From an uncultured Chloroflexia bacterium (GTDB lineage: Bacteria > Chloroflexota > Anaerolineae > CG2-30-64-16): 64,000 nt of DNA. Shown in pieces: positions 13,125-39,232 of this stretch. The stretch lies in the NCBI GenBank assembly GCA_963774265.1, contig CAVZDU010000002.1:352001-416000 (forward strand). Direction: 5' to 3'. The notes under the pieces were generated by a model. That model saw only the letters and a program-made list of their open reading frames with translations. It was not told the DNA's origin and ran no database searches. The position numbers were made by a program, and so were the translations under genes. How positions within the stretch are numbered: the first letter of the stretch is position 1; each line of letters starts with the position of its first letter.

Positions 13125-14669
13125 ATGAAGGATAAACTCGCAGAACTCCGAGCGATGCGCGCCAAGGCGAAGCTGGGCGGAGGTCAGAGCCGCATCGACG
13201 ACCAGCATTCCCGCGGCAAGCTCACTGGACGCGAACGCATTGATGCGCTGGTGGACTCCGGCACGTTCCAGGAACTGGGCCGGCTGGCCACCCACAACTT
13301 CAGCGATTTCGGCATGGCTGAGAAGCGCTATCCCGGCGACGGCGTTGTCACAGGGTTTGCAAAAATCGACGGCCGGCGCGTCGCCCTCTACGCCCAGGAC
13401 TTCACTGTCCTCGGCGGATCGTTCTCTGAAGTCCAGTCCCAGAAGGTCTGCAAGATCATGGAGCTGGCCATGGAGAGCGGCATCCCCGTCGTGGCGCTGC
13501 TCGACTCGGGCGGCGCGCGCATCCAGGAGGGTGTCCGCAGCCTGGCGGCGTACGGTGAGCTGTTCGTGCGCAACGTTATGGCCTCCGGCGTTGTGCCCCA
13601 GATTTCCGTCCAGATGGGACCTTGCGCGGGCGGCGCGGTTTACTCCCCCGCGCTGACAGACTTCGTGGTGATGGTCCGCAAGACCAGCTATATGTTTATC
13701 ACCGGGCCTGACGTGATCAAAGCCGTTACGGGCGAGCATGTCGACTTCGACACCCTGGGCGGCGCGGTGGCGCATAACGTCCAATCGGGCGTCGCTCATT
13801 TTGCGGCTGACGATGAGGCGGCGGCGTTTCGTCTTATCAAGGAGATCCTCTCCTATCTGCCCCAAAATAACAGCGAGGACCCGCCCCGCGTTCAGCCATA
13901 CGACGACCCGGGCCGCCGCGACGACATGCTCGACCACCTCATACCCGAGGACTCCAGCCAGCCATACGACATGCGACAGGTCATTGCCAGCGTCTTCGAC
14001 CGGGGCAGCTTTCTCGAAGTGCACGCACATTACGCGAAGAACGCGCTGATCGGCCTGGCCCGGCTCGATGGCTTCCCGGTCGGCGTGGTGGCCAACCAGC
14101 CCATGACCCTGGCCGGCGTTCTCGACATTGATTCCTCCGACAAGATCGCACGCTGGGTGCGCTTCTGCGACGCGTTCAACCTGCCGGTCATCACCTTCGT
14201 CGATACACCGGGATATATGCCGGGCGTTGCCCAGGAGCATGCCGGAATCATTCGCCACGGCGCAAAGGTCATCTATGCCTACTGCGAGGCAACGGTGCCC
14301 AAAATCAGCGTTGTGATCCGCAAGGCGATGGGTGGCGCGTACATTGCCATGAGCAGCAAGCAGATGCGCACCGATCTGGCCTACGCATGGCCCACCGCCG
14401 AGATCGCAGTCATGGGTCCGGAGGGCGCGATCAACATCCTCTACCGCGATGAGCTCAAGCGGGCCGAGAATCCCAATGAGCTTCGAAAGAAGCTGCTGCA
14501 GGATTACGTGGACCGCTTCCACAACCCCTACGCAGCCGCAGATATGGGCCAGATCGACGAGGTGATCGAGCCGAGCTACACCCGCCTGCGCCTCGTCAAC
14601 GCGCTCGAGATCCTGCGCTCCAAGGTGGCCAGCAATCCGCCGAAGAAGCACGGCTTGATGCCGGTGTGA
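13125..14669 (+). CDS. mmdA: Acyl-CoA carboxyltransferase, (methyl)malonyl-CoA decarboxylase alpha subunit
   Basis: GKLTGRERI, QDFTVLGGS, DSGGARIQEG, GPCAGGAVYSPA, VDTPGY, AVMGPEGA, PPKKHG; followed by delta, gamma and beta genes, with no biotin carboxylase. Confidence 0.88.
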   Translation: MKDKLAELRAMRAKAKLGGGQSRIDDQHSRGKLTGRERIDALVDSGTFQELGRLATHNFSDFGMAEKRYPGDGVVTGFAKIDGRRVALYAQDFTVLGGSFSEVQSQKVCKIMELAMESGIPVVALLDSGGARIQEGVRSLAAYGELFVRNVMASGVVPQISVQMGPCAGGAVYSPALTDFVVMVRKTSYMFITGPDVIKAVTGEHVDFDTLGGAVAHNVQSGVAHFAADDEAAAFRLIKEILSYLPQNNSEDPPRVQPYDDPGRRDDMLDHLIPEDSSQPYDMRQVIASVFDRGSFLEVHAHYAKNALIGLARLDGFPVGVVANQPMTLAGVLDIDSSDKIARWVRFCDAFNLPVITFVDTPGYMPGVAQEHAGIIRHGAKVIYAYCEATVPKISVVIRKAMGGAYIAMSSKQMRTDLAYAWPTAEIAVMGPEGAINILYRDELKRAENPNELRKKLLQDYVDRFHNPYAAADMGQIDEVIEPSYTRLRLVNALEILRSKVASNPPKKHGLMPV

Positions 14670-14685
14670 GCATAGAGGTAGTCGC

Positions 14686-15111
14686 GTGAACCCAACCGTC
14701 GGAGAACTCCTTCAATCGGGGCTGACCATCACCGTTCTGGGAATGGGGCTGGTGTTTGCCGCCCTGGTGCTCCTGTGGGGCTTGCTTCGCCTCCTTTCAA
14801 CCGTTTTCCAGGACAAGGTGGAACCGCCGCCACAGATCAGCACAGCCCTCGATGAAGCCGAGGCGGCCGAGGTGCGGGCCGCGCTGGAAGCCGCTGCAGC
14901 CTTGACCGAGGAACGCGGCCAGGTCGCGGCGCTGGTGGCAGGGGCGTTGCTGGCGAACGCGCTGCCTTTACTCTTCGAGGCGCCCACCGGCCCCGCTTTC
15001 GAGCACGGCCGCACTGCGCCCTCCTGGGTGACAGGTAACCGGGCGCGGGCGCTGAGTTCATGGCAGCCTCCGCGCACACCCGAACCGAATCCACACCAGG
15101 GCACGGAATGA
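14686..15111 (+). CDS. mmdD: Na+-pumping decarboxylase membrane anchor (OadG/MmdD family)
   Basis: N-terminal helix ITVLGMGLVFAALVLL, E..VAALVAGA, SW..GNR. Confidence 0.78.
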   Translation: MNPTVGELLQSGLTITVLGMGLVFAALVLLWGLLRLLSTVFQDKVEPPPQISTALDEAEAAEVRAALEAAAALTEERGQVAALVAGALLANALPLLFEAPTGPAFEHGRTAPSWVTGNRARALSSWQPPRTPEPNPHQGTE

Positions 15112-15139: not shown

Positions 15140-15599
15140 GTGCCAACCTTCGATGTGATGATCCAGGGCAAGAAATACCATGTCGAGATCCCTGACCCCG
15201 GCGCCACCCCGCTGCAGGTCATTGTCGACGGGGAGCCGTTCGATGTGGAGGTGTCGGGCACCGAGTCCACAGTCCACGCCGACCCTCCGCGCGGCGGCGC
15301 CCCGGCCCGCGCCCGAGCCCCCCAAGCTGCCACCCCTGCCGAACGTGAAGGTCGCCCGGCCTGCGGCGCCCAGCGGCCCAAGCGGCGGACACGACATCCT
15401 CTCGCCGATGCCGGGCACGATTCTGTCTATAGAGGTTAAGGTCGGTGAAGCGGTCGAGTCCGGCCAGGTCGTCGCCGTGCTCGAAGCGATGAAGATGAAA
15501 AACCCGATCCGCGCCAACTTCGACGGGACCGTGAGTGAGATCGCGGCGACCCCTGGCCAGGCCGTGGCCTACGGTGACGTGTTGGTCCGACTGGCCTGA
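15140..15599 (+). CDS. mmdC: Biotin carboxyl carrier subunit (frameshift near 15285)
   Basis: SPMPGTI...VLEAMKMKN biotinylation motif; Pro/Ala linker. Confidence 0.88.
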
Positions 15600-15610
15600 A
15601 GGGGGCAGCC

Positions 15611-16776
15611 ATGAGCATCGGTTGGGACACTCTGCTGTCCATTTTCGCCGGGTTGGGAGAGCTGACCTGGGCCAACGTGCTGATGATCGCGGTCGGCGCG
15701 GTGCTCATCTACCTGGCCATCGCCAAAGAGTACGAGCCGGTCCTGCTGATCCCCATCGGCGTGGGCGCGATCCTGGCGAACATCCCAGGCGCAGGCATGG
15801 GACTCGACCTGCGGGCCATCATGGCCGGCGAACCCCAGGAAGGCAGCGTCTTCTACGCGCTGTACAAAGCAGGCATCGAGACCGAGCTCTTCCCGTTGAT
15901 CCTCTTCATCGGGATCGGCGCCATGACCGACTTCGGACCGCTGCTGTCGAACCCGCGGATGGTGCTGGTCGGCGCAGCGGGCCAGTTCGGCATCTTCGCC
16001 GTCCTGCTGCTCGCGCTGGCGACCGGCCGTTTCTCCCTGCCCGAGGCCGCGTCGATCGGCATCATCGGCGCCATCGACGGCCCGACCAGCATTTTCGTCG
16101 CATCCAAGCTGGCGCCGCACTTGCTGGCGCCCATCGCCGTCTCTGCGTATACCTACATGAGCCTGGTGCCGATCATTCAGCCGCCCATCATGCGCCTGCT
16201 CACGACGAAGGCCGAGCGCCGGATCCGCATGCCGTATATCGAGCGCCCGGTCAGCAAGCGCGCTCGCATCATCTTCCCCCTGGTGGTCACCCTTCTGACC
16301 GGCTTCCTGGCGCCCCAGGCCAGCCCCCTCATCGGCACGCTGATGTTCGGGAACCTGATGCGCGAGTCGGGCGTGGTGGACCGTCTGGTCAAGACCGCCG
16401 GCAACGAGCTAGCGAATATCGCCACCATCTTCCTGGGCATCACGATCGGTGCGACCATGGTCGGCGACGTCGTTCGCCAACGTTCAGACGCTCATCATCC
16501 TGGTCCTGGGCATCCTGGCCTTTGCGCTGGACACCGCAGCCGGCGTGCTGTTCGGCAAGCTGCTCAACGTGCTCACGCGCGGCAAATTCAACCCGCTTGA
16601 TCGGCGCGGCGGGCATCAGTGCATTCCCGATGGCTGCGCGGGTCGTCAATCGCGTGGGTCTCGAGGAAGATTATGACAACTTCCTGCTGATGCACGCGAT
16701 GGGCGCAAACACTGCCGGTCAGGTGGCTTCGGTCCTGGCCGGCGGCATTGTGCTGGCAATCATGACAGGAATCTAG
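15611..16776 (+). CDS. mmdB: Na+-translocating carboxybiotin decarboxylase beta subunit (two frameshifts near 16470 and 16595)
   Basis: [74 protein letters not shown]. Confidence 0.92.
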
Positions 16777-16778
16777 CT

Positions 16779-18359
16779 ATGCCAATTCTGACTCGCATCA
16801 AGCCTTCAGAGTATCACGACTCGATCACCCTCATGCAGGCAGCGGCCGCGCTCCTGGACATGCCTGGGATTACGGATGCGGCCGTGATCATGGGCACCCC
16901 CGCGAACCACGAGATCGTCTCGGGCGCGGGATTGCTGACGCCGGAGGCCGCGGCGACGCGGCCGGACGATCTGGTCATCATCGTCAAAGCTGCCGATGAT
17001 GCGGCCGGCCAGGCCGCGCTGGCGAAAGCTGAGGAAATCCTGTCGCGGCGGGCCGAACGCACGGAGGCGAATTCAGCGCGCCCCAAGTCGCTGGCATCAG
17101 CCATCGCGGCCGATCCCCGGGCGAACCTGGCGGTGATCTCGGTCGCAGGCCGCTATGCCGCACAAGAAGCGCGCACCGCGCTCGAAGCCGGGTTGCACGT
17201 GCTCCTCTTCTCGGACAACGTGCCCCTGGAAGACGAGATCAGCCTCAAGGAGCTGGCAGCAAGCAAGGGCTTGCTGTGCATGGGGCCGGACGCCGGCACC
17301 GCGATCATCAACGGCGTCGCGCTGGGGTTTGCGAACGCAGTCCCGCGCGGCAGCATCGGGTTGGTCAGCGCAGCGGGCACCGGGCTGCAGGGGGTGACCT
17401 CCGGAATTGCACGCCGCGGCGTGCGCGGCGCCGCGAGCGGCGCGGGCGTGTCGCAGGCCATCGGCACGGGCGGCCGCGACCTGAGCGAGGCGGTCGGCGG
17501 CAAGATGATGCTCCAGGGGCTGAAGATGCTCCAGGAGGACCCCGAGACAGAGGTGATTGTCCTCATCTCGAAGCCGCCTGCCCCGGCGGTTGCCCAGAAG
17601 GTGCTCGGCGCGATCACCAAGGCCAAGCCCACAGTCGTGTGTTTCCTCGGCGCAGACCTAGGCGCGATCGAGAAGGCCGGCGCACTCCCAGCGACGACAC
17701 TGACGCAGGCGGCTGTGATCGCGGCCAGCCTGACCACCGGCGGCAACTACTGTGAAGCGTTGATGGGTTTGGAAGACTTCAGTCAGGATCTGATCCCCCT
17801 GGCTGAAGGCGAGCGCAGGAAGCTCGCTCCAGGCCAAACTGCGCTGCGCGGCCTCTTCGTCGGCGGCACTTTCTGCTACGAGGCCCAGCTCCTGCTCAAG
17901 AACCTGCCCGAGCCGGTGCACAGCAACGCGCCGCTGATCGAGGCGAACAAGCTGGGGGCTGAGACATACAAGCACACGATCATCGACCTCGGTGAGGACG
18001 AATTCACTCAGGGACGCCCGCATCCGATGATCGACCCGACGCTGCGAAACCGGCGCATCACCCAGGAGGCAGGGGATCCCTCTGTCGGGGTGATCCTGCT
18101 CGACTTCGTGCTCGGCTATGGCAGCCACATCGACCCTGCTGGCGCAGCGCTGGAGGCAATTCGCCAGGCGCAGCGAACTGCGCGGGAGGCCGGCCATAAC
18201 CTGGTCTTCGTCGCTTCAGTCTGCGGCACGGAGGCCGATCCCCAGCGCCTGAGCGACCAGGAGGCGAAGCTGCGCGGGGCTGGCGTGATCGTCCTGCCCG
18301 ACAATGCGTCGGCTGCGAGACTGGCGGGCTTGATCAGCCAGGGATTGGACGAAGCCTGA
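16779..18359 (+). CDS. FdrA-family protein, YahF-type architecture (succinyl-CoA synthetase-like fold)
   Basis: YHDSITLM, MGTPAN, LFSDNV, MGPDAGT, GTGGRDL, DLGEDEFTQGRPHPMIDP, DFVLGYGSH; starts 2 nt after the mmdB stop. Confidence 0.9.
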   Translation: MPILTRIKPSEYHDSITLMQAAAALLDMPGITDAAVIMGTPANHEIVSGAGLLTPEAAATRPDDLVIIVKAADDAAGQAALAKAEEILSRRAERTEANSARPKSLASAIAADPRANLAVISVAGRYAAQEARTALEAGLHVLLFSDNVPLEDEISLKELAASKGLLCMGPDAGTAIINGVALGFANAVPRGSIGLVSAAGTGLQGVTSGIARRGVRGAASGAGVSQAIGTGGRDLSEAVGGKMMLQGLKMLQEDPETEVIVLISKPPAPAVAQKVLGAITKAKPTVVCFLGADLGAIEKAGALPATTLTQAAVIAASLTTGGNYCEALMGLEDFSQDLIPLAEGERRKLAPGQTALRGLFVGGTFCYEAQLLLKNLPEPVHSNAPLIEANKLGAETYKHTIIDLGEDEFTQGRPHPMIDPTLRNRRITQEAGDPSVGVILLDFVLGYGSHIDPAGAALEAIRQAQRTAREAGHNLVFVASVCGTEADPQRLSDQEAKLRGAGVIVLPDNASAARLAGLISQGLDEA

Positions 18360-18363
18360 AAGG

Positions 18364-19773
18364 ATGACCGACATGGACCTGTTCCGCCAACCCTTGAAGC
18401 CGATCAACGTCGGCCTGGAATCGTTCTACGAAAGCATGGTCAGCCAGGGGCGCCGGCCGTCGCTGTGGACTGGCGGCCGCCGCTCGAGGGCTACGTCGAG
18501 ATGCTGCGCACACGCGACGGGGTCGACATCGAGGCGGCCAACGCCGAGGCCTTCGCGCGCATCACCGCGGGCCGCCCGATGCTCGTCGGCATGGGCATGG
18601 CACAGCGACGTGATCCCCGGCTTCGCGCCGGCGCACGGCGCGGATGCTGATCACGCACAGCGGGCCGCCGATCGCGTGGGAGCGCATGTGCGGCCCGACG
18701 CGCGGCGCAGTCATGGGCGCGCTGATCTACGAAGGGCTGGCCGAGACGCCCGAAGACGGCCGCGGCCCTGGCCGCGTCCGGCGAGATCGAGTTCGCACCC
18801 TGCCATCACTACGGCGCGGTCGGGCCGATGGCGGGCATCATCAGCCCATCGATGCCGGTGTTCATCGTCAAGAACGAGGCATTCGGCAACGTCGCCTACG
18901 CCACGCAGAACGAGGGGCTGGGCAAGGTGCTGCGCTACGGCGCGTACGGGCCCGGAGGTGATCCGCCGGCTCAAGTGGATGGAGACGGTGCTCTACCCAG
19001 CGCTCAAGGCGGCGCTGGAGGTCAGCGGCCCGATCGATCTGCGCAGCATGACCGCACAGGCGCTGCACATGGGCGACGAGTGCCACAACCGCAACAAGGC
19101 CGGCACTTCGCTCTTCATCCGGCTGATCGCGCCGGCGCTGGTGGAGGCGGTGAAGGATCGCGGCAGTCGTTGCCGAGGTGCTGCGCTTCATCGACGGCAA
19201 CGACCACTTCTTTCTGAATCTCTCGATGCCGGCGATGAAGGCAATGCTGGCTGCCCGCCGAAAACATCCCCGGCTGCACGGTCGTGACCATGATGGCGCG
19301 CAACGGGACGGATTGGGGCATCCGCGTCAGCGGCACGGGCGACCGCTGGTTCACCGCGCCCGCGCCGTTGGTCGCAGGGCTCTGGCTGCCCGGCTTCACC
19401 GCGGCCGACGCCAACCCGGACATCGGCGACAGCGCGATCACCGAGACGGGCGGGATCGGCGGGTTTGCGCTGGCCGGCGCGCCGGCCATCGTCAAGTTCG
19501 TCGGCGGCACGCCGGCCGACGCGCTGAACGCGACGCTGGAGATGTACGAGATCACGCAGGGCGAACACACCGCGTTCACGATCCCCGGCGCTCAATTTCC
19601 GCGGCACGCCCGTCGGCATCGACGTGCGCAAGGTGATGCGCACCGGGATCACGCCGCGGCTGAACACCGGCATCGCACACCGGGAGCCGGGCGTGGGCAT
19701 GGTGGGCGCCGGGCTGGTGTAGGCGCCGAAGGGGTGTTTTGTGGCCGCGTTTGAGGCGCTAAAAGCGATCTGA
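18364..19773 (+). CDS. DUF1116 protein, YahG-type (several frameshifts; in-frame TAG at 19720)
   Basis: INVGLESF...DWRPP N-module, HSGPP, PCHH..AVGPMAG, NEGLGKVLRYGA, MGDECHNRN, DIGDSAITET.GIGG, NTGIAH. Confidence 0.88.
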
Positions 19774-19809
19774 CCGCCCATCTTGTGATACATTTCTCGC
19801 ATTGAGTGC

Positions 19810-19838
19810 TTGCACAATCCGGCAAAGCTGTGTATAGT
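19810..19838 (+). promoter_or_regulatory. sigma70-type promoter, probably leaderless transcript
   Basis: TTGCAC-N17-TATAGT; the ATG at 19845 follows the -10 box after 6 nt, with no SD. Confidence 0.6.
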
Positions 19839-19844
19839 GTCACC

Positions 19845-20858: not shown

Positions 20859-20875
20859 TAAGGAGGCATACAGTA

Positions 20876-21749: not shown

Positions 21750-21796
21750 GCAGCGAGCGAAGAGGAAGAAGGAAAAAGGAAGAAGGAAGAGGGAAG

Positions 21797-23896: not shown

Positions 23897-23916
23897 TCGC
23901 CCCGGAAAATCGCCAG

Positions 23917-23945
23917 TTGACACTGCCCCGCGGCGATGCTATACT
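23917..23945 (+). promoter_or_regulatory. Near-consensus sigma70 promoter of the fdrA-ylbE-cyclase-Mo-hydroxylase II operon
   Basis: TTGACA-N17-TATACT with extended TGc. Confidence 0.8.
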
Positions 23946-27067: not shown

Positions 27068-27148
27068 GAAGGAGCGCCCCGTGGGTTTCACCACCTTTCG
27101 TAGATCGACCGCAATCGGAAACCATCGACGCTGAAAGGATCGACGTAC

Positions 27149-30273: not shown

Positions 30274-32621
30274 AGTACGTGGGTCAACGCATCAAGCGCA
30301 ATGAGGATCCTCGCCTGCTGACCGGGCAGGCGCTCTTCGTGGACGATGTGCAAATCCCAGGCATGCTGCATGCCGGATTCCTGCGCAGCGACTATGCCCA
30401 TGCACGCATCCGCAGCATCGACGTATCGAAGGCGCGGATGCGACCTGGCGTGGTGGCTGTCTACACCGCGGAAGACATGGGCGACTTCTGGAAACCCGGC
30501 CCCCTGCTGGTGCCCGCGCCCCACTCGATTCCCGGCCTGATCTTCAACAAACGCACGCAACTCCCCATGGCCCGCGCCGGGGATAAGGTCCGCCACGCCG
30601 GAGAGGCGCTTGCCTGTGTCATCGCCGAGAGCCGCTACATCGCCGAGGACGCGTTCCAGGACATCGAGGTTGACGTGGAACCGCTCGGGGTCGTCGCTGA
30701 CCTGGAAGGCGCCCTGGAACCGGGTGCACCTCTGGTCCACGATGAGTTAGGTACGAACCTCGCCTCTTATGTCAAGCAAGAAAAGGGCGACTACGCTACT
30801 GCCCGCGCCCAGGCCGACACGGTAATCAGCCGCCGGATAGTGATCGATCGTGGGGCCGCGGCTGCGCTGGAGAACCGCGGTTACGTCTCCTGGTGGGATC
30901 CAAAAACCCAGGAGTTGACCGTTTGGGCGACCACCCAGGCGCCCATCGCCTACCGCAACGTCATCGCCGGCTTGTTGGGGCTGTCCGAGAGCCAGGTGCG
31001 GGTGATCGCGCCCTTTGTCGGCGGCGGTTTCGGCCCCAAGATTATGCTCGGCCAACCCGAGGAGCAGTTGCTTGCCTGGAGCACCCTTCGCCTGGGCCGG
31101 CCGATCAAATGGATCGAGGACCGCCAGGAGAACTTCTTGACTACCACTCAAGAGCGCATGCAAGTCCACGACGTGGAGATAGCATTGACGCGAGATGGCA
31201 AGATCCTCGGGCTGAAGGATGTCTTCATCCACGACACGGGCGCATACAACCCCTACGCCTTGACGGTCCCGCTGAACACGCAGACCCACACCATGGGGCC
31301 GTACGAGATCCCGAACTTTCACACCGAATACAGGGTGGTCTTCACCAACCGCATCATCGTCACCCCGGTGCGCGGCGCGGGCCGGCCCCAGGGCGTCTTT
31401 GTGATGGAGCGCATGCTCGATCTGGCGGCCAAAGAGCTGGGCCTGGACGTTACCGAGATCCGGGCGATGAACATGATCCGGCCCGATGAGTTCCCCCACC
31501 CACAGGGGATCATCGGCCAGGACTTCACCGAGCTCATCTACGATAGCGGCAACTTCCCTGCGACGCTGGAAAAGGCGAAGGCCCTGATCGGTTACGACCA
31601 GTTCGTACACGAGGAGCAGCCCAGGCTGCGCGCCGAGGGCAAACTCATCGGCATCGGCGTGGCCTGCTTCACTGAGGGTAGTGCCGTGGGGCCGTATGAA
31701 GGCGCCCGGGTAACTGTGGAATCGAGCGGCAAGGTGAATGTAGCGACAGGCGTCGGCACGCAGGGCCAGGGGCACTTCACGTCATTCGCCCAGATCGTGG
31801 CTGACCAGGTGGGGGTGCCGCCTTCCGACGTGCACATCACCACCGGCGACACGCAGAAGTTCCACTGGGGCACCGGCACCTTCGCCAGCCGCGGTGCGAC
31901 GATTGCGGGCAACGCCATCAACGCTGCAAGTGCGAGCGTGCGCGCCAAGATCCTCAAGCTGGCCAGCAAGGTGCTCGAAACGCCGGAGCAGGAGCTGGAG
32001 ATAGTCGACGGCCTCGTACGGGTGGGCGACATCCCCGAAAAATCGATTACGCTGGCTGAACTGGCGGTGAAAGCCAACCCCATGCGCGGGTCGGTGGAGC
32101 CGGGGACAGAGCCTGGCCTGGAAGCCACCTCTTACTTCGGTCCCAAATACGGCGCGACCGGCGCAGGCACGTGCGCGATGATCGTGGAAGTGGACCCCGA
32201 CACGATGCTGGTAGAGATCAAGCGCTACGTGATCGCCCACGACTGCGGTACGGTGCTCAACCCGCTGATCGTCGATGGCCAGATCCACGGCGGCGTGTCG
32301 ATGGGCATCGGCCAATCATTCTATGAGAAGCTGGCGTGGGATGAGAACGGCCAACTGCTTAACGCCAATCTGGGCGACTACCTGCTGCCACGCGCCACCG
32401 ACATGCCGATCATGCAGATAGGCCACCTCAACACGCCATCGCCGCTCAACCCGATGGGCTCGAAGGGAGTCGGCGAGGCTGGCGCTATCCCCACGCCTGC
32501 CTGCTTTGTCCAGGCGGTGGAAAACGCGCTGATCCGATACGATCTGGAGATCCTGGAATCGCCGCTAAGCCCGAATCGGCTGTTCGAAGTAGTTCATGGC
32601 CAACCAGAAGGGATCGAGTAG
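30270..32621 (+). CDS. Mo-hydroxylase II large subunit (CoxL-like, not a CO dehydrogenase)
   Basis: R.EDPRLLTG, VGGGFGPK, PVRGAGRPQ active-site loop, GQGH, FASR, GQIHGG, KGVGE. Confidence 0.9.
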   Translation: MKYVGQRIKRNEDPRLLTGQALFVDDVQIPGMLHAGFLRSDYAHARIRSIDVSKARMRPGVVAVYTAEDMGDFWKPGPLLVPAPHSIPGLIFNKRTQLPMARAGDKVRHAGEALACVIAESRYIAEDAFQDIEVDVEPLGVVADLEGALEPGAPLVHDELGTNLASYVKQEKGDYATARAQADTVISRRIVIDRGAAAALENRGYVSWWDPKTQELTVWATTQAPIAYRNVIAGLLGLSESQVRVIAPFVGGGFGPKIMLGQPEEQLLAWSTLRLGRPIKWIEDRQENFLTTTQERMQVHDVEIALTRDGKILGLKDVFIHDTGAYNPYALTVPLNTQTHTMGPYEIPNFHTEYRVVFTNRIIVTPVRGAGRPQGVFVMERMLDLAAKELGLDVTEIRAMNMIRPDEFPHPQGIIGQDFTELIYDSGNFPATLEKAKALIGYDQFVHEEQPRLRAEGKLIGIGVACFTEGSAVGPYEGARVTVESSGKVNVATGVGTQGQGHFTSFAQIVADQVGVPPSDVHITTGDTQKFHWGTGTFASRGATIAGNAINAASASVRAKILKLASKVLETPEQELEIVDGLVRVGDIPEKSITLAELAVKANPMRGSVEPGTEPGLEATSYFGPKYGATGAGTCAMIVEVDPDTMLVEIKRYVIAHDCGTVLNPLIVDGQIHGGVSMGIGQSFYEKLAWDENGQLLNANLGDYLLPRATDMPIMQIGHLNTPSPLNPMGSKGVGEAGAIPTPACFVQAVENALIRYDLEILESPLSPNRLFEVVHGQPEGIE

Positions 32622-33269
32622 ATGAAGCTAGACGGCGAACACGTTTTCCACGGACCGCGTGATGCGGTCTGGGCGTTGATACGCGACCCGGAGGCGCTGG
32701 CCCAGGCGCTGCCCGGCACAGAGACCCTCACGAAGCTCAGCGAGAACGAGTACGAGGGCCGGATGAACGTGCGCATCGGCCCGGTATCCGGCGTCTTTTC
32801 CGGCAAGGTGCTGGTGTCGGACGAGGCGCCACCTGAAACCTGCACCCTCACCGCAGAGGGCAAGGGGGCGCAGGGTTTTGCCAAAGGCGTAGGTCGAATA
32901 CAATTGATCGATCAGGCTGACGGCACGACGCTGATGAAGTACGAGGGCGACGTGCAGATCGGCGGCAAGCTGGCAAGCGTCGGCCAAAGGTCGCTGGACA
33001 CAGTGAGCAAAAGCATGATCCGCCAGGGCCTGACCGCTCTGGACGCCGCCCTGGAAGCACGCATGGTGGCCGCCGCGGCCGGCAAGGAGGTTGCGTACCA
33101 GCCCCCGACCGAAGCCGAGTTCGCTGCGGCCGTCGCCAAAGATGTGGCCAAAGAAGTGGCCGGCGACCTGAGAGAGCGGGCAATGACCAGCCAATCTGCG
33201 CGCATGCTGTTGGTCATCATTCCGCTCGTCGTCATTCTGGTGATCATTGCGCTGATCGTGTCCAGATGA
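32622..33269 (+). CDS. coxG: CoxG-family protein with C-terminal membrane anchor
   Basis: VW..IRDPEALAQALPG, IGGKLASVGQR, hydrophobic C-terminus. Confidence 0.85.
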   Translation: MKLDGEHVFHGPRDAVWALIRDPEALAQALPGTETLTKLSENEYEGRMNVRIGPVSGVFSGKVLVSDEAPPETCTLTAEGKGAQGFAKGVGRIQLIDQADGTTLMKYEGDVQIGGKLASVGQRSLDTVSKSMIRQGLTALDAALEARMVAAAAGKEVAYQPPTEAEFAAAVAKDVAKEVAGDLRERAMTSQSARMLLVIIPLVVILVIIALIVSR

Positions 33270-33440
33270 TGCGGCCGATCTCAGACCCACTCGCGGGATC
33301 GAAAGGAGGTGATAACCTGCCGTTACGTCGATCGTTGTCCTAGCGTCCACCAGCGTGGCACAGATCGCAGGTCCCGCTGTCCTGGGCAGTGAGAGGAATT
33401 GGAAGCGACGCATTTCCACCCCCAAGTAAGGAAGGTAATA

Positions 33441-34859
33441 ATGGCTGCTACCGCCACCAAGTCGAAGGTCATGGGATACCTGCCGAACGACACTCCGCCG
33501 ATCGGCCAGATGATCCTTCTGGGCTTCCAGCACGTCCTCACCATGTTCCCGGCCACCGTGCTGTGCGCCATCCTGATGCATTTCCCCGTCAGCACGGTGT
33601 TGACCATCACCGGACTGGGTACGGTCATCACCCTGGTCGTCAGCAAACTGACTATCGGCACCTATATCCCCCTCTATTATGGCTCCAGCTTCAGCTACAT
33701 CACAGCCGTGCTGGGCATCATGGCCGCTAAGGGCGTCACCGAGGGCACTGCACCGCCGGAGGTCGTCTCTGTGGTCACCGCCGGTTTCATCGCCACCGCC
33801 ATCATCAATGTGGTGGTCGGCCTGATCATCCGCGTCACGGGCGGCAAGAAGGGTCTGGACCATGTCCTGCCCGCCATCATCACCGGCCCGGTGGCCTGCA
33901 CCATCGGCATCGGCCTGGGCGCTTCGGCGCTGCAAATGGCGAGCGGCACCTGCTGCGGGGTCAGCGATCCCGGCATGCAGCTCAAGTGGTGGGCCGCGGC
34001 CATCATCACGCTGTTGGCCGCCTACATCCTGTCGGTCTACCTCCAGGGCAAGGGCTTCGTCGGCATGCTGCCAATCCTGTTGGCTGCCATCATCGGCTAC
34101 CTCGTCTCCATTCCGCTCGGCCTGGTGAACTGGGGGGCGTTCGGCCAGGAGGCCTTCCTGCGGGCCCCGGTCATCACGCTTCCGCGCTTCAACGACCCGC
34201 TGACCCTCACGGCGGTTGTTGGCATCGGGATCATGGCCATCGCCACTATCCCTGAATCCACGGCGCACTTGTACCAGATCAGCCTGTACGTGGATCACCT
34301 GGCCGAAGAACAGGGCCGCAAGAAGTACGGCCTTGCGGAGTATATCGGCTTGAACCTGATACTGGACGGACTTGACGACTTTATCAACGGCCTGTTCGGC
34401 TCCACCGCCGGCACCAATTACGGCGAGAACAACTCGCTCATGGTGATCACCCGCAACTATGCCGGCCCAGCCCTGATCACTGCTGGGTTGATCGCGGTCG
34501 TGCTCGGCTTCATCGGCCCGCTGGCCGAGGCGATCTCCAGCATCCCGACCGCAGTCTCAGGTGGTCTGGCGATCTACCTGTTCGGCGTCATCGGCATGCA
34601 GGGTATCGCGCTCATGATGGCCGAGAAGGTGAATCTGTACGACCCGAAGCAGTTGGCAATCGGCGCGACCATCCTGATCATCGGCATCGGCGGAAACATC
34701 GGCTTCCCCGGAGGCTTCCTGCCGATCCCGCTGCTGACCGGGATCTTCCCCAGCGGCTGGCCGGCGATCGCGACCGGCGCAGTGGTCGGCATCCTGCTGA
34801 ACCTGATCACGCTGGCCTGGAAGCCGCCCATGGAGCGCACGAACATCCTGAACCGCTAG
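33441..34859 (+). CDS. NCS2/NAT nucleobase permease, UraA/RutG-like (pyrimidine-type residues)
   Basis: QH..MF, GSSFSY, E.T.H in TM8 (IPESTAHL), and NAT motif YGENN..M.ITR with Glu, as in UraA. Confidence 0.85.
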   Translation: MAATATKSKVMGYLPNDTPPIGQMILLGFQHVLTMFPATVLCAILMHFPVSTVLTITGLGTVITLVVSKLTIGTYIPLYYGSSFSYITAVLGIMAAKGVTEGTAPPEVVSVVTAGFIATAIINVVVGLIIRVTGGKKGLDHVLPAIITGPVACTIGIGLGASALQMASGTCCGVSDPGMQLKWWAAAIITLLAAYILSVYLQGKGFVGMLPILLAAIIGYLVSIPLGLVNWGAFGQEAFLRAPVITLPRFNDPLTLTAVVGIGIMAIATIPESTAHLYQISLYVDHLAEEQGRKKYGLAEYIGLNLILDGLDDFINGLFGSTAGTNYGENNSLMVITRNYAGPALITAGLIAVVLGFIGPLAEAISSIPTAVSGGLAIYLFGVIGMQGIALMMAEKVNLYDPKQLAIGATILIIGIGGNIGFPGGFLPIPLLTGIFPSGWPAIATGAVVGILLNLITLAWKPPMERTNILNR

Positions 34860-34980: not shown

Positions 34981-35475
34981 ATGATCCTTGATTTCAACCT
35001 TGCCACCACCAAAGAGATGATGCACGCGAGTGCGCCCCAAGCCGAGTTTCAGGCCGAGCTGCGCGCCATCGTAGGCTATCACATGCCGACCAAACGCATC
35101 GTTGCGATCGGCGATACCGCGGACGACATCCACAGGAATGCTCCCGAATACTGGGAGAAGAACGGCAAGCAGATTGAATTTGTCCACCCCTTCGACTTCG
35201 CCCACGCGCGCTCCACCTCCCACCCCTACGAACCGCTGATTGCGGCGCGAGTGGTATCCTGGTTGGCCAACAAGGCCTTCAGCCAGATGAAACACCAGGG
35301 CTTCAAGCGCCTTTTGCTGAGCCCATGGGTGGATCGCGTTAATTACAACCTTCAGCTCGAGGGCTTCGAAAAACTGCCGGTCGACGTCCGCCGTCAATTT
35401 GTAAAGCATCTCAAGAAGCTCCTGGTTGCAGTCCGGCGCGTGGAAATCAACGGAGAGAAGGTGTTGGGGCGGTGA
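34981..35475 (+). CDS. Hypothetical protein, possibly MreB/actin domain-I-only
   Basis: 164-aa ORF with SD gagga; weak resemblance to the MreB N-half (IVGYHMPTKRIVAIG, FVHPF, LPVDVRR). Confidence 0.55.
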   Translation: MILDFNLATTKEMMHASAPQAEFQAELRAIVGYHMPTKRIVAIGDTADDIHRNAPEYWEKNGKQIEFVHPFDFAHARSTSHPYEPLIAARVVSWLANKAFSQMKHQGFKRLLLSPWVDRVNYNLQLEGFEKLPVDVRRQFVKHLKKLLVAVRRVEINGEKVLGR

Positions 35476-35506: not shown

Positions 35507-36402
35507 TTGCAACCCTTTGACTACGTCATTCCCAAAGACTATCAGGAGGCCAGTGCGCTGTTGGCGGCTGGCAATGGGTCCGTGCGCGCGCGCTACAGGG
35601 CGGCACGGACCTTTTGATTCGCATCCGCAACGGATTCGTTCGCCCCAAACGCGTCATCGATCTCAAGGGCCTGCCCGGCATGCGCGAAATTCGCGTGAGT
35701 GCCGACGGCTGGCTGGTCGTTGGCGCCGCGTGCACGATGAACCAGGTGGGCCTGCATCCGCTGGTGTGCGAGAGCTATGGCGTGCTTGCCGAGGGATGCA
35801 ACTCGGTCGCGTCGTATCAGCTCCGAAACCGCGCGACCGTCGGCGGCAACTGCTGCAACGCCAGCCCCGCCGCGGACACGGCGCCCGCCCTCCTCTGCCT
35901 CGAGGGCGTGGTTGAGATCTTCGGTCCCGATGGAACTCGCCGGGCAGCAGTCAACGACTTCTTCACCGGACCAGGGCGCACGGTGCTCCGGAAGGGTGAG
36001 TTCCTCACCAGCATTCATCTTCCGCCCTTTCCTGGACGCTCCGCGGGTGCATACCATAAGCTCGGCCGGACACGAATCGGCGACATATCACTGGTCAGCG
36101 TCGCCGTGCACTATCACCAGGCGGAAAATGGCGCGACCTGGCGCATCGCGATCGGCGCGGCGGGTCCCACGCCCCTGCACGCGCCCGAGGCCGAGCTATC
36201 CCTGGCACAAGATACGTCAGCGGATGGTATCGCGCGTGCGGCGGACCTGGTCTCGTCGGCCGCGTGGCCCATCGATGACATCCGCGGCAGCGCAGCCTAT
36301 CGCCGGGCGATGGTGGCCGTGCTGGCCCGACGCGGCATCGAACGCGTGCTGGCGGCGCTTAGCTCTCGCAGCACTCCTCCCGCGACAGGAGGACAGGCAT
36401 GA
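35507..36402 (+). CDS. Mo-hydroxylase III FAD subunit (frameshift near 35595)
   Basis: TTG start with SD ggagg; (G)GTDL, IDLKG, LRNRATVGGN..NASPAAD, IDDIRGSAAYR. Confidence 0.87.
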
Positions 36403-36893
36403 AACATCGAATACAGTTTACTGTCAACGGCGAGCCGTATGACATCGAAGTTCCCTCGCACCACACGCTGCTGCAGGTGCTGCGCGAGCAATTGGTGCTG
36501 ACCGGCACGAAGAACGGCTGCGAGGCAGGTGAATGCGGCGCGTGCGCAGTGCTCATGAACGGTGAGCCGGTCAATTCATGCATGGTACTGGCGCCTGAAG
36601 CCGACGGCGCCGCCATCACGACCATCGAGGGCCTGGCGCACGACAGCGAGCTCGACCCGCTGCAGGAGGCATTCGTCGCGACCGGCGCGACGCAATGCGG
36701 TTTCTGCACGCCGGGCATCCTCGTCAATGCCCGCGCCCTGCTGGATCGGAACGCCAATCCGACCGATGCGGAGATTCGCGAGGCATTGGTGGGCAACCTG
36801 TGCCGCTGCACGGGCTACATCCGCATCATCGACGCGATCAAGATCGCGGCGATCAAAATCGCGGCCCGGCAGCGCAGCGAGGTGCTCCGATGA
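36399..36893 (+). CDS. Mo-hydroxylase III 2x[2Fe-2S] subunit
   Basis: GTKNGCEAGECGAC, QCGFCTPG, GNLCRCTGY. Confidence 0.95.
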   Translation: MKHRIQFTVNGEPYDIEVPSHHTLLQVLREQLVLTGTKNGCEAGECGACAVLMNGEPVNSCMVLAPEADGAAITTIEGLAHDSELDPLQEAFVATGATQCGFCTPGILVNARALLDRNANPTDAEIREALVGNLCRCTGYIRIIDAIKIAAIKIAARQRSEVLR

Positions 36894-39232
36894 CCACGAA
36901 GAAAAAGACCGCCGTTGTCGGCGCCAGCCCCTTGCGCATCGATGGGCGCGACAAGGTCACGGGCGCGGCGACGTACGTTGACGATATTCAGTTTGGGCCG
37001 AACTTGCTGTGGGGTGCGCTAAAGCGGAGCCCGATTGCGCACGGGCTAATCAAACGAATCGACGTGAGCAAGGCGAAGGCGCTGCCGGGCGTGCGCGTCG
37101 TGGTGGCCGGCGAGGATTTTCCCGGTTTCACAGGCCTCTATCTGAAAGATCGCCGGATCTTCGCGCTCGACCGAGTGCGCTACATCGGTGAAGCTGTCGC
37201 CGGTGTGGCCGCTGACACACTGGAGGTCGCACAGCAGGGCGTTGAGTTGATCGAGGTGGAATACGAGGAATTGCCGGGCGTCTTCGACCCCGAGTACGGG
37301 GCAAGCCCCGAGTCCCCGGTGCTTCATCCGGACCTGGCATCCTATGAATATGTCCCCTTCATCTTCCCTCAGGCGGGCACGAACATCTCGAACTGGATGA
37401 AGGTGCGCAAGGGCGATATGGAGGGCGGCTGGGCCGAGGCGGACCTGGTGTACGAGCACAAATACAAAGTGCCGCACGTCCAGCACGTGCCCCTGGAGAC
37501 CCATGTGTGTGTCGCCCAGCAGAATGTCAACGGGAAGATCACCTTGTGGTCTTCGAGCCAGTCGCCGTTCGCACAGCGCAACCTGATCGCCAAAGCGCTG
37601 CACATCGACCACTCAATGCTCCGCGTCATCACCCCCCACGTGGGAGGCGGGTTTGGCTCCAAAGCCGGTGTAAGTATGGAAGGCGCGGCTGTTGCGCTGG
37701 CCATGCACGCTAAGGGCCGGCCAGTGAAGCTGAGGATGTCGCGAGAGGAGGAGTTCTACACCACGTTCGTGCGACAGGGGCTCACCGCCAGGATCAAGAT
37801 GGGGATGACCCACGATGGCCGCATCACTGCGATGCAGAACACCTTCTACTGGGATGGCGGCGCCAGCACCGAGTATGGCGTGAACATCACGCGCGCGGCC
37901 GGTTACTCCGGCACCGGCCCGTACTTTGTGCCAAACATTCATGTCGACAGCTACTGCGTGTACACCAACCACCCGGTGGGCGGCGCGATGCGCGGGTTCG
38001 GCATGCCGGAAATCCACTTCGGCATCGAACAGCACATCGATGTGATGGCGCACAAGCTGGGGCTCGATCCGGTCGAGGTGCGGCTGAAGAACTGCCTGAA
38101 AGACGGCGACGAGACGCTGACAGGCATGAAAATGCACCCGACGGGTCTCAGCCAGTGCATCCGCCGCGCGGCGGACGCGATCGGTTGGGGGCAGGCCAGC
38201 ACTCCATCTGCGCCGTACAAGGTGCGCGGCAAGGGGTTGGCGGCCATGTGGAAGGCGCCAGCCATGCCGCCGAACCCGGGATCGAGCGCGGTGGTGCGAA
38301 TGAATGAGGACGGCACGGCAACTGTCAGCATCGGAGGCGTCGATATCGGGCAGGGCGCGCTCACGGCCATGGCCCAGTTCGCCGCCGAAGGACTTGGCAT
38401 CAAGGTCACAGACGTGCGGGTGAACACAGTGGACACTGACTACAGCCCGTATGAGTGGCAAACCGTGGCGTCACGTCTTACGTGGAGCATGGGCAACGCG
38501 GTATTGCAGGCAGCCGAAACCGCGCGGATGCAGGTGTTGACCGCAGTGGCCGAAGCCTGGGACGAGGACATCAATGACCTGGACATCATCGATGGGGAGG
38601 TGATCAGCTACAAGTCCGAGGAATCGGTCCCGTTGAAGGACATCGCCATCTACGGCGTACAACGCAAGGACGGCACCTTTGTCGGTGCGCCGGTGGTGGC
38701 CCAGGGTCGCTTTATGCCCGACTACGTCACCCCGCTCGATCCGGAGACCGGGCAGGGCCCACGCGCGGTGGTTCACTTCACCACGGGCGCGCAGGCCGTC
38801 GAGGTCGAAATCGACACGGAGACGGGTGAAATCCAGGTGTTGAAAATCGTCTCGGCTTACGATGTGGGAAAGGCAATCAACCCGGAGATGGTGCGCACCC
38901 AGATGGAGGGCGGCGCGGTGCAAGGGATGAGCACGGCCCTTCTCGAGGCCATCATCCTCGATCAGGGGCGGCCGCGCAACCCGAATTTCACGGACTACCG
39001 CATCGCGACCGCCGTGGATGCGCCGCTGGAGACAGAAAACATCATCATCGAAGTGCCGCAGGACGATGGACCGTTCGGCGCACGCGGCGTCGGCGAGCAT
39101 CCGATGGTTCCCACGGCTCCCGCCATCGCGAACGCGGTGTTCAATGCGGCGGGCGTGCGGATCGACAGCATGCCCCTGACCAGTCAGAAGGTTTGGGAGG
39201 CGCTGCAATCGCGGCTGCACTCGCGAATGTAA
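36890..39232 (+). CDS. Mo-hydroxylase III molybdopterin subunit (xanthine dehydrogenase XdhA/PucD-like)
   Basis: RIDGRDKVTG, VGGGFGSK, GAMRGFG, DIGQG, TVASR, QMEGG, RGVGE. Confidence 0.92.
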   Translation: MTTKKKTAVVGASPLRIDGRDKVTGAATYVDDIQFGPNLLWGALKRSPIAHGLIKRIDVSKAKALPGVRVVVAGEDFPGFTGLYLKDRRIFALDRVRYIGEAVAGVAADTLEVAQQGVELIEVEYEELPGVFDPEYGASPESPVLHPDLASYEYVPFIFPQAGTNISNWMKVRKGDMEGGWAEADLVYEHKYKVPHVQHVPLETHVCVAQQNVNGKITLWSSSQSPFAQRNLIAKALHIDHSMLRVITPHVGGGFGSKAGVSMEGAAVALAMHAKGRPVKLRMSREEEFYTTFVRQGLTARIKMGMTHDGRITAMQNTFYWDGGASTEYGVNITRAAGYSGTGPYFVPNIHVDSYCVYTNHPVGGAMRGFGMPEIHFGIEQHIDVMAHKLGLDPVEVRLKNCLKDGDETLTGMKMHPTGLSQCIRRAADAIGWGQASTPSAPYKVRGKGLAAMWKAPAMPPNPGSSAVVRMNEDGTATVSIGGVDIGQGALTAMAQFAAEGLGIKVTDVRVNTVDTDYSPYEWQTVASRLTWSMGNAVLQAAETARMQVLTAVAEAWDEDINDLDIIDGEVISYKSEESVPLKDIAIYGVQRKDGTFVGAPVVAQGRFMPDYVTPLDPETGQGPRAVVHFTTGAQAVEVEIDTETGEIQVLKIVSAYDVGKAINPEMVRTQMEGGAVQGMSTALLEAIILDQGRPRNPNFTDYRIATAVDAPLETENIIIEVPQDDGPFGARGVGEHPMVPTAPAIANAVFNAAGVRIDSMPLTSQKVWEALQSRLHSRM

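Follow-up and report, generated by a model that had tools for sequence, protein, structure and literature searches.

A candidate operon for the anaerobic oxidative degradation of uracil-like heterocycles, linked to a Na+-pumping decarboxylase, in an uncultured Anaerolineae bacterium

Which compound is degraded when the genes of a Na+-translocating decarboxylase, two molybdenum-containing hydroxylases (Mo-hydroxylases), cyclase-family hydrolases, AllF/AllG-like proteins and a nucleobase permease follow each other on one strand? This question is raised by positions 13125-39232 (+ strand) of a stretch of 64,000 nucleotides (the window) from an uncultured member of the Anaerolineae (Chloroflexota), represented by a metagenome-assembled genome (MAG; GenBank GCA_963774265.1, contig CAVZDU010000002.1; G000:C2:352001-416000 in our numbering, in which G, C and L denote genomes, contigs and loci). 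The assembly has 5.5 Mb in 10 contigs and is rated 84% complete. An earlier note had read the run as an oxidative pathway in which uracil or thymine is hydroxylated, the ring is opened by a cyclase in place of barbiturase, and the resulting three-carbon acid is decarboxylated with Na+ export. Our analysis makes it probable that the genes belong to a single pathway, that its substrate is a urea-containing heterocycle, and that it starts with a front end of Mo-hydroxylase, cyclase and AllF/AllG-like proteins. Tentatively, the run may be read as a functional operon by which a uracil-like N-heterocycle is catabolized, with uracil and/or thymine as the likeliest substrates.

Linkage of the cluster genes

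All gene classes listed in the earlier note were found on the + strand with Pfam and NCBIfam models (Table 1); some NCBIfam scores given below are those of orthologues in a congener, G004. The run is almost free of gaps, with spacings of 0 to 129 bp that are mostly below 90 bp, and only 2 bp lie between mmdB and the first AllF-like gene. The sole larger gap (647 bp) extends from the permease gene to the gene of the flavin adenine dinucleotide (FAD) subunit of Mo-hydroxylase 2. Two paralogous units can be recognized, each consisting of a Mo-hydroxylase, a cyclase and an AllF/AllG pair, and they probably serve two related substrates. This gene arrangement is not due to chance, because other genomes have the same families around the cyclase and arrange them in several orders.

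Four relatives (G004, G012, G014 and G024) have contigs that span the whole region. They share a core order of mmdADCB, AllF-like, AllG-like, (LysM-CAP), the first cyclase (cyc1), CN hydrolase, permease, FAD subunit, [2Fe-2S] subunit, Mo subunit and two lipoproteins, with mmdB missing from its core position in G012; six further relatives have a partial core. The block from the coenzyme A (CoA)-transferase to the CoxG-family gene (22706-33269) is not at this position in any of the four spanning relatives and is, therefore, an insertion in the lineage of the window. In G004, G012 and G014, a homologue of the CoA-transferase is found farther downstream, at 5 to 11 kb from the Mo subunit gene. The inserted block was also found in other genomes (for example at L032, L038, L044, L077 and L083) and, beside a gene for a GNAT-fold protein, in Bellilinea.

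A wider view was obtained from 566 stretches of GTDB genomes that encode a relative of cyc1. The best 80 of them were taken with up to 10 kb on either side, about half of these loci ending at contig breaks, and their genes were tallied twice, by tblastn and by an unbiased clustering of all open reading frames (ORFs). With tblastn, the cyclase was accompanied by a Mo subunit in 54 loci, an AllG-like gene in 42, an FdrA-like gene in 41, the permease in 29, mmdA in 16, mmdB in 15, and the CN hydrolase and the CoA-transferase in 16 each; eight loci had none of these genes. Clustering gave similar counts (Mo subunit 52, AllF 40, AllG 40, permease 26, mmd 16) and added four families: AllH (PF11392) in 35 loci, a protein of 230 amino acids (family f5) in 36, a thiolase in 30 and a DUF35/ChsH2-like protein in 16. 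Indeed, AllH and f5 flank the cyclase in five of the eight loci in which it had appeared alone, including Bellilinea. The gene orders vary widely among the 80 loci, which argues that the linkage is under selection and not inherited with one ancestral arrangement. In GTDB, the genomes with the best relatives of cyc1 are MAGs labelled Anaerolineae, Anaerolineales or Chloroflexota and the cultured Bellilinea caldifistulae GOMI-1, the exceptions being L097 (labelled Syntrophorhabdus) and L100 (labelled only "bacterium").

In an even sample of 151 genomes from the class, 49 encode cyclase and AllG together, 2 only the cyclase, 5 only AllG and 95 neither of them. Kin are not independent in these counts, but cyclase matches come from 37 of the 96 genera and AllG matches from 41. 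The gene mmdB is enriched in the cyclase-positive genomes (39 of 51, compared to 25 of 100 cyclase-negative ones). More distant representatives of cyc1 (35-51% identical) carry names of Aminicenantes, Nitrososphaerota/Conexivisphaerales, Acidobacteriaceae and Nitrospinota MAGs. The archaeal-named homologue P0137 (40-50% identical) was used to collect 69 metagenome loci; the named members of its 90% cluster are Nitrososphaerota or Conexivisphaerales MAGs. Around it we observed Mo subunits of two types (23 and 10 loci), FdrA-like (19 and 8) and AllG-like genes (17 and 9), GNAT genes (14), an mmdA-like carboxyltransferase (10) and AllH (4 and 3), and less often the CN hydrolase (3), carbamate kinase (2) and thiolase (1). 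Of the 270 unclassified ORFs that lie at most 2.5 kb from core genes, 150 were scanned with Pfam, which revealed no further recurrent catabolic family; the commonest matches were Peptidase_M1 (5) and Acyltransferase (4). In sum, the linkage is old and general. Its loss in relatives was the first outcome that the earlier note had named as a refutation, and the idea withstands it in the 80 loci, the 151 genomes and the 69 metagenome loci.

At least eight frame breaks interrupt the cluster, as seen from alignment of the G004 proteins to the window and from Pfam matches. Two lie in mmdB (about 16465-16470 and 16597-16628, giving three pieces on the intact G004 protein). At least three, at about 19162, 19254-19270 and 19585-19598, split the first AllG-like gene, whose intact G004 counterpart of 491 amino acids is matched piecewise in frames 1, 2, 3 and 1. 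One break is in cyc1 (about 21423-21439), the two pieces of which align to orthologues of 291 amino acids, and one is in each FAD subunit gene. That of Mo-hydroxylase 2 is at about 35587-35590 (two pieces on the G004 protein); that of Mo-hydroxylase 1 is near 29110, where PF00941 is split over two frames, with its positions 2-87 in the frame 28829-29113 and the rest, together with the other domains, in 28897-30273.

These breaks are most likely errors of the assembly and not signs of pseudogenes, since the essential genes rpoB and rpoC of the same assembly also change frame, since a completeness of 84% is low for so contiguous an assembly, since the genes are single open frames in the relatives, and since short metagenome contigs of related populations lack the extra base. 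Exactly one base is absent from these contigs at 16468, 16597, 19249/19250, 19583 and 21439, which supports five of the six breaks predicted in 15500-22000; the break at about 19162 is not among the positions shown. The contigs, from four metagenome runs, were used for indel positions only, and this evidence is strong and not final, because they derive from relatives and not from the strain of the window. Eight public DNA runs contained only 5 to 8% of the sampled words. Four of the eight break sites contain GATC (near 16597, 19155, 19583 and 29090). Methylated GATC is a typical site of systematic long-read error, and this hints at methylation-linked basecalling errors.

Proposed reaction sequence

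In our model, each step of which is inferred from the enzyme families and the gene linkage, the substrate would be taken up by the UraA-type permease, and a three-subunit Mo-hydroxylase would hydroxylate the ring to a barbiturate-type trione. A cyclase-family metal hydrolase would then open the ring to an acyl-ureide such as (methyl)ureidomalonate. By analogy with the oxamic transcarbamylase of Escherichia coli, the AllF/AllG-like enzyme may remove the carbamoyl group, giving malonamate and carbamoyl phosphate, and a carbamate kinase encoded elsewhere could use the latter to make ATP. The monoamide malonamate would be hydrolyzed to malonate by the Nit2-like CN hydrolase, the dicarboxylate would be converted to (methyl)malonyl-CoA by the CoA-transferase, and MmdADCB would decarboxylate malonyl-CoA to acetyl-CoA and CO2 with export of Na+; thymine would yield the methyl series.

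The permease is the only UraA-like one found in the genome, and its best NCBIfam model is that of uracil permease (NF007995), ahead of RutG and PbuX. Alignment of the G004 protein with UraA (5xls/3qe7) revealed that Glu 241 and His 245 ("..E...H") as well as Glu 290 ("GEN") are kept, and the window protein, which is 51% identical to that of G004, retains both motifs. We take these three residues to be the uracil-binding ones of UraA, and xanthine/urate carriers presumably have Gln at the last position.

Hydroxylation could be catalyzed by either of two enzymes. The large subunit of Mo-hydroxylase 1 is CoxL-like, and homologues 57-64% identical to it are encoded beside the archaeal-type cyclase. 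The large subunit of Mo-hydroxylase 2, of the xanthine dehydrogenase/4-hydroxybenzoyl-CoA reductase branch, has 1rm6 as its closest solved structure and is, from 36800 on, 87.6% identical to the G004 protein. Altogether, the genome has about 10 genes for Mo-hydroxylase large subunits (contigs C1, C2, C7 and C10), which suggests a specialist in the oxidation of N-heterocycles or aromatics.

The candidates for ring opening are cyc1 and a double cyclase. In cyc1, the motif HxGTHxDxxxH, which we take to be involved in metal binding, is invariant among five orthologues and aligns with kynurenine formamidase 4cz1; kynurenine formamidases, as distant relatives, are also the closest solved structures. 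Across the class, cyc1 is 77-84% identical. A first homologue search returned, among the matches listed, Anaerolineae-type proteins of about 80% identity and was uninformative on the range of the family, and an AlphaFold2 model from a five-sequence alignment was too poor (mean pLDDT [predicted local distance difference test] 58.5) and was set aside. The double cyclase is 79% identical to a protein of B. caldifistulae whose gene adjoins homologues of the second AllG-like (AllG2) and FdrA-like (FdrA2) genes. Barbiturase itself had been called absent; we obtained no match to its family (AtzD/TrzD, PF09663) in the genome, but the control was silent in all 14 genomes searched, which makes this weak evidence.

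Both AllF/AllG pairs of the genome lie in the window. The G004 orthologue of the first AllF-like protein scores 477.9 bits on NF004760 (cut-off 433), and the protein was matched in 32 of 41 related genomes. The proteins named YahF and YahG in the earlier note match the same family models as the second pair, so that YahF/YahG and AllF/AllG are not told apart. The assignment of a function to an orphan YahFG family was premature. According to the report on E. coli AllFGH (PMC11326118), three genes encode an oxamic transcarbamylase that converts oxalurate to oxamate and carbamoyl phosphate, and this enzyme is the only characterized member of the family.

The CN hydrolase has visible Glu, Lys and Cys motifs in its translation. 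Among solved structures, it is closest to two omega-amidases, Nit2 (2w1v, the best match) and Nit3 of yeast, which would fit the hydrolysis of a dicarboxylate monoamide; N-carbamoyl amidohydrolases are among the weaker solved matches. The class III CoA-transferase is the first gene of the inserted block.

Of the decarboxylase, the beta subunit, the biotin carrier and the small gamma/delta subunit all match their family models; G004 MmdB scores 466 bits on TIGR01109, with a cut-off of 190.6. From 13125 on, MmdA is 93% identical to its G004 orthologue, and its closest solved structures are the propionyl-CoA carboxylase beta subunit and the methylmalonyl-CoA decarboxylase alpha subunit. The window mmdB is the only copy in the genome, and in the 16 of 80 loci that have mmdA/mmdB inside the cluster, the Mo genes lie on one side of them and the cyclase or the AllF-like gene on the other. 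The residue at position 422 of Streptomyces coelicolor PccB, presumably a determinant of acyl-CoA choice, was also considered. It is Ile in the window MmdA and Ile or Val in three other aligned chains including PccB; it does not discriminate and was dropped.

Table 1. Features of the window, with strand and supporting family matches
Feature	Positions	Strand	Family matches and remarks
mmdA, acyl-CoA carboxyltransferase subunit of biotin-dependent decarboxylase	13125-14669	+	PF01039 E 3.4e-188
mmdD, small membrane subunit (OAD_gamma)	14686-15111	+	PF04277 E 5e-10
mmdC, biotin carrier	15180-15599	+	PF00364 E 9.3e-20
mmdB, Na+-translocating decarboxylase beta subunit	15611-16776	+	PF03977, 2-252 in one frame, 293-348 in another
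AllF/FdrA-like 1 (earlier "YahF")	16779-18359	+	PF00549 E 1.9e-38, PF02629
AllG/DUF1116-like 1 (earlier "YahG")	~18364-19770	+	PF06545 in pieces
Secreted LysM-LysM-CAP protein	19806-20858	+	PF01476 E 3.9e-29, PF00188 E 6.9e-21; N-terminus signal-peptide-like
cyc1, cyclase/kynurenine-formamidase-family metal hydrolase	20873-21746	+	PF04199 E 3.6e-29
CN hydrolase, nitrilase superfamily	21797-22702	+	PF00795 E 4.2e-50
Class III CoA-transferase	22706-23896	+	PF02515 E 1.6e-128
AllF/FdrA-like 2	23936-25789	+	NF004760 554.2 bits (cut-off 433), PF00549
AllG/DUF1116 2, intact	25799-27067	+	PF06545 E 6.3e-87, 1-215 of 215 positions
Double cyclase	27149-28828	+	PF04199 E 5e-56, two stretches
Fused FAD/[2Fe-2S] subunit, Mo-hydroxylase 1	28829-30273	+	PF00941, PF03450, PF00111, PF01799
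Large subunit, Mo-hydroxylase 1, CoxL-like	30204-32621	+	PF02738, PF20256, PF01315
CoxG-family protein	32622-33269	+	PF06240 E 3.5e-22
NCS2 nucleobase permease, UraA-like	33399-34859	+	PF00860
Doubtful ORF	34981-35475		
FAD subunit, Mo-hydroxylase 2	35507-36402	+	PF00941, PF03450
[2Fe-2S] subunit, Mo-hydroxylase 2	36399-36893	+	PF01799, PF00111
Large subunit, Mo-hydroxylase 2, xanthine dehydrogenase/4-hydroxybenzoyl-CoA reductase branch	36800-39232	+	PF02738, PF20256, PF01315
orfX1, orfX2, lipoproteins	39321-41298	+	
Phosphofructokinase-family gene	41798-43012	+	
tRNA-Ser	1398-1487	-	
CoxE-like VWA protein	3704-4954	-	
MoxR/CoxD-like AAA ATPase	4967-5887	-	
Third Mo-hydroxylase, large subunit, three ORF pieces	9767-7216	-	
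Third Mo-hydroxylase, FeS remnant	near 9632-9811	-	
Third Mo-hydroxylase, FAD subunit	10055-10909	-	
GntR/FCD regulator and CoxG-family gene	11640-12703	-	FCD domain, positions 1-44 only
tRNA-Ser	12978-13066	-	

Weighing of the alternatives

The pathway interpretation of the earlier note is borne out in part. The linkage, the UraA-type residues and the Nit2-like hydrolase support it, but AllH was not found, carbamate kinase is unlinked, and the GNAT-fold protein, thiolase and DUF35 protein of the relatives have no role in it. These and several further observations weigh against uracil and thymine or against individual steps. Four proteins stay below the cut-offs of their best or expected models: the permease on NF007995 (201.8 bits for the window protein and 241.7 for that of G004; cut-off 477), G004 MmdA on TIGR01117 (773.4 bits; cut-off 998.8), the CoxL-like subunit on its best NCBIfam model, CODH_aero_grp5 (862 bits; cut-off 950), and the CoA-transferase on its best models, those of succinate-glutarate, oxalate and formyl-CoA transferases. 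The large subunit of Mo-hydroxylase 2 scores almost equally on the XdhA and 4-hydroxybenzoyl-CoA reductase models, again below all cut-offs. Furthermore, an adenine deaminase gene adjoins the cluster in three of the 80 loci (L052, L058 and L074), and a Bmp/PnrA-type ABC uptake system occurs in six. Since mmdB is present in a quarter of the cyclase-less genomes (25 of 100), Mmd is not exclusive to the pathway.

The end of the proposed sequence differs among the relatives. In most of them, the cyclase is followed by f5 (36 of 80 loci) and by the thiolase (30) with DUF35 (16) instead of by the CN hydrolase, CoA-transferase and Mmd. Thiolase and Mmd were never found in the same locus (0 of 80), and the CN hydrolase and f5 are together in L108 only; because of this near exclusion, they are best seen as alternative end modules behind a common front end. 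An AlphaFold2 model of f5 (mean pLDDT 85.1) resembles, in Foldseek searches, GNAT acyl-CoA N-acyltransferases with E values of 1e-7 and weaker and TM scores of about 0.45-0.55, so that f5 is a predicted GNAT-fold protein. The GNAT protein and the thiolase have no well-founded role in our scheme, and this is the main unexplained observation, which also weighs against it. Malonyl-CoA decarboxylases have a GNAT-type catalytic domain, and a CoA-linked malonyl step carried out by the GNAT protein is conceivable. In B. caldifistulae GOMI-1 (L059/L191), one contig carries a divergent AllH, cyc1 and a GNAT gene and another a GNAT gene, FdrA2, AllG2 and the double cyclase; no Mo subunit was found within the stretches read.

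A further gap concerns AllH and carbamate kinase, for both of which the earlier note had advised a search of the rest of the genome. AllH (PF11392/DUF2877) was not found in this genome (84% complete) with the family model, with the AllH protein of Bellilinea or by tblastn with two AllH proteins, the E. coli control being positive; nor was it found in seven congeners, which makes eight of eight genomes of the genus, or in G010, G012, G014 and G024. Carbamate kinase (TIGR00746) is present, but its one full match in the genome (C1:425167-426099) belongs to a purine-type cluster on a different contig, and none of the 80 loci has a match. The missing AllH is the weakest link of our scheme in this genus. 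It may be dispensable or replaced there, or the AllF/AllG-like pair may work differently, for example in a CoA-dependent manner. A DUF4037 gene lies between the AllF-like and AllG-like genes in two AllH-less relatives (L030:7686-8795 in G006 and L019:810-1943 in G024), and its product is a possible stand-in for AllH.

Could the same logic apply to another urea-containing heterocycle, such as a xanthine- or urate-type purine derivative, orotate, hydantoin or a substituted pyrimidine, with the CoA-dependent end handling another small acid? The indifferent scores of Mo subunit 2, the low score of the permease, the adenine deaminase genes and the ABC systems would all agree with this, and with some 10 Mo-hydroxylase large subunits in the genome, many substrates are plausible. 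In addition, the available part of PMC12625717 places AllFGHK in purine, biuret and oxalurate contexts only, in nitrifiers beside biuret/triuret genes. We nevertheless regard another heterocycle as somewhat less likely than uracil or thymine. The three UraA residues are kept in the permease, and the carboxyltransferase, a CoA-transferase of the small-dicarboxylate type and an omega-amidase-like hydrolase would fit a three-carbon dicarboxylate (malonate) derived from a pyrimidine ring. Purine breakdown, to our knowledge, does not yield a three-carbon dicarboxylate such as malonate. Moreover, a complete reductive purine-type cluster is present elsewhere in the genome, in C1:415001-435000 (L120). 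It comprises genes for a GntR/UTRA regulator, FAD and Mo subunits, an M20 peptidase, two proteins resembling ornithine transcarbamylase (OTCase), the carbamate kinase, two pyridoxal phosphate (PLP) enzymes, a YgfK-like reductase of 1200 amino acids and an amidohydrolase, and looks like a cluster for the reductive degradation of uric acid or 2,8-dioxopurine. As the reductive uric-acid pathway of E. coli has the same enzyme classes, judging from the preprint (bioRxiv 10.1101/2025.05.19.654654), purines seem to be handled by this other cluster.

A second alternative changes the role of the AllF/AllG-like pair. Without AllH, the pair could be an enzyme like succinyl-CoA synthetase that makes or uses a CoA ester feeding Mmd, and the carbamoyl group or urea would be lost by hydrolysis, for example if the CN hydrolase worked as an N-carbamoyl amidohydrolase. 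The AllF-like proteins have CoA-binding and CoA-ligase domains and a weak match to the succinate-CoA ligase alpha subunit, the AllF-like gene of the first pair starts 2 bp behind mmdB, and AllH was found in none of the eight genomes of the genus that were searched. The GNAT-fold protein beside the cyclase of relatives has mostly acetyl- or acyl-CoA N-acyltransferases as solved look-alikes, and the nitrilase superfamily includes N-carbamoyl amidohydrolases, which the CN hydrolase matches more weakly. A phosphohistidine motif (GH[AS]G), which we take from succinyl-CoA synthetase, is absent from both AllF-like proteins; no conclusion was drawn from this. For a long time, FdrA carried the annotation of an acyl-CoA synthetase (PMC11326118), yet the only activity assigned by experiment in the family is that of oxamic transcarbamylase. 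In addition, AllH belongs regularly to the cluster in other lineages (in 35 of the 80 loci); it adjoins the AllF-like gene in G009, G022 and G031 and lies just behind the CN hydrolase gene of the cluster in G033. Carbamate kinase is linked in two archaeal-type loci, and the CN hydrolase is nearest to omega-amidases and not to carbamoylases. A CoA-dependent pair is, hence, improbable in our view.

A last alternative, that the run has no single function, is largely refuted and has only a very slight chance of being true. It would then be a decaying pseudogene cluster, or a housekeeping Mmd operon that came to lie beside unrelated hydrolase and oxidoreductase genes by chance, as the frame breaks, the embedded LysM-CAP gene, mmdB in cyclase-less genomes and the inserted block might suggest. 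Against this, the essential genes rpoB and rpoC suffer from similar breaks, intact genes occupy the same positions in relatives, the contigs of related populations are free of the additional base where the window genes break, and the linkage is seen again in distant lineages and with many different gene orders.

Known systems and neighboring genes

We found no account of this gene cluster or of an anaerobic oxidative pyrimidine route in the literature, subscription journals being outside our coverage. The parts belong to known families, and their combination is new relative to the searchable literature. The nearest relative by protein family is AllFGH of E. coli with AllK (PMC11326118 and PMC9843812). 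Like that system, the operon has FdrA/AllF and AllG/DUF1116 proteins, here in two pairs, and the acyl-ureide phosphorolysis to an amide and carbamoyl phosphate that we propose by analogy would act on a compound one carbon longer than oxalurate; the same cluster in other lineages has AllH and occasionally carbamate kinase. Unlike it, the genus has no AllH that we could find, carbamate kinase is unlinked, allantoin-pathway neighbors are absent here, and the pairs are linked to Mo-hydroxylases, cyclases, a uracil-type permease and a decarboxylase. The AllFGHK contexts described in the available part of PMC12625717 do not include Mo-hydroxylases and cyclases either.

By intermediates, the nearest system is the aerobic oxidative pyrimidine route, in which uracil/thymine dehydrogenase, barbiturase (AtzD family) and ureidomalonase convert uracil via barbiturate and ureidomalonate to malonate. 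Our model shares its first two transformations and the three-carbon product malonate, that is, intermediates and not enzymes. A cyclase-family hydrolase is proposed in place of the AtzD barbiturase (with the PF09663 search lacking a working control), the ureide would give carbamoyl phosphate and not urea, the product would go to a Na+-pumping decarboxylase, and the organism belongs to a lineage of strict anaerobes.

Comparators for this last step are MmdADCB of the Veillonella/Propionigenium type and the malonate decarboxylation system of Malonomonas. The window operon has the four subunits of Na+-translocating MmdADCB, starting with alpha and followed by the small membrane subunit, the biotin carrier and beta, with a beta orthologue that passes TIGR01109. 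It differs in that the alpha subunit is below the cut-off of the mmdA model, that the operon is placed within a nucleobase-type cluster, and that the thiolase/DUF35 pair takes its place in most relatives. The reductive uric-acid cluster (bioRxiv 10.1101/2025.05.19.654654) is likewise anaerobic and has a Mo enzyme of the xanthine dehydrogenase family at its start, a ureido cleavage and carbamate kinase. Its later families are entirely different (YgfK, the SsnA/HyuA amidohydrolases, the OTCase-like YgeW, the M20 peptidase YgeY and the PLP lyase YgeX), its end product is pyruvate and not an acyl-CoA, and its look-alike lies on another contig here.

A generalization that we put forward as doubtful is that Mo-hydroxylase, cyclase and AllF/AllG(/AllH) are an old, widespread and undescribed unit for the oxidative fermentation of pyrimidines in strict anaerobes, present in Anaerolineae and in the lineages named Nitrososphaerota/Conexivisphaerales, Aminicenantes, Acidobacteriaceae and Nitrospinota. 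Two forms of energy conservation would result, ATP made with carbamoyl phosphate and a Na+ gradient built up by the decarboxylation of (methyl)malonyl-CoA, and the end modules, CN hydrolase with CoA-transferase and Mmd or GNAT protein with thiolase/DUF35, would be interchangeable. As far as we know, pyrimidine breakdown in anaerobes has been described by the reductive route only, and the oxidative route via barbiturate from a few aerobes only, with poorly defined genes. If true, the unit would be a third, energy-yielding way to degrade pyrimidines. It would provide the first physiological role for AllFGH paralogues outside allantoin metabolism (for example YahEFG of E. coli) and for this cyclase subfamily, widen the substrate range of AllFGH, an enzyme class discovered only recently, and help to explain how Anaerolineae, abundant in digesters, wetlands and sediments and rarely cultured, live on cell debris. 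Even with another heterocycle as the substrate, Mo-hydroxylase, cyclase and AllF/AllG are a well-supported and uncharacterized pathway core.

Several genes in and around the run stand apart from the proposed steps. The LysM-CAP gene lies between the first AllG-like gene and cyc1, as it does in G002, G004, G014 and G024, and occurs in seven of the 80 loci; its product is probably no pathway enzyme. The ORF between the permease and the FAD gene of Mo-hydroxylase 2 has no match in Pfam or NCBIfam and no counterpart in G004, and it was treated as doubtful. Directly behind the last Mo subunit gene, orfX1 and orfX2 encode paralogous lipoproteins that are about 35% identical, are each internally duplicated and have lipoprotein signal sequences. 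Only the closest relatives have them behind the Mo subunit gene (six of the 80 loci). They match no Pfam or NCBIfam family and gave only matches of 0.80 or less in an Atlas search. Without a family match and with only six loci, they were left out as pathway members. A phosphofructokinase-family gene follows on the same strand, with a gap of 499 bp after the cluster.

Upstream, on the - strand, a GntR/FCD regulator gene and a CoxG-family gene lie just before the operon. The former is a candidate operon regulator; only positions 1-44 of its FCD domain are matched, and it is probably frame-broken. An Rfam scan of the whole window gave two tRNA-Ser genes (anticodons GGA and CGA) and no riboswitch, and hence no clue to a ligand from RNA; the second tRNA-Ser gene lies 58 bp upstream of mmdA. 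Finally, a third Mo-hydroxylase is encoded farther upstream on the - strand (3704-10909) together with coxD, coxE and a gene for an EthD-domain protein, and the splitting of its large subunit looks like the result of frame errors in the assembly.

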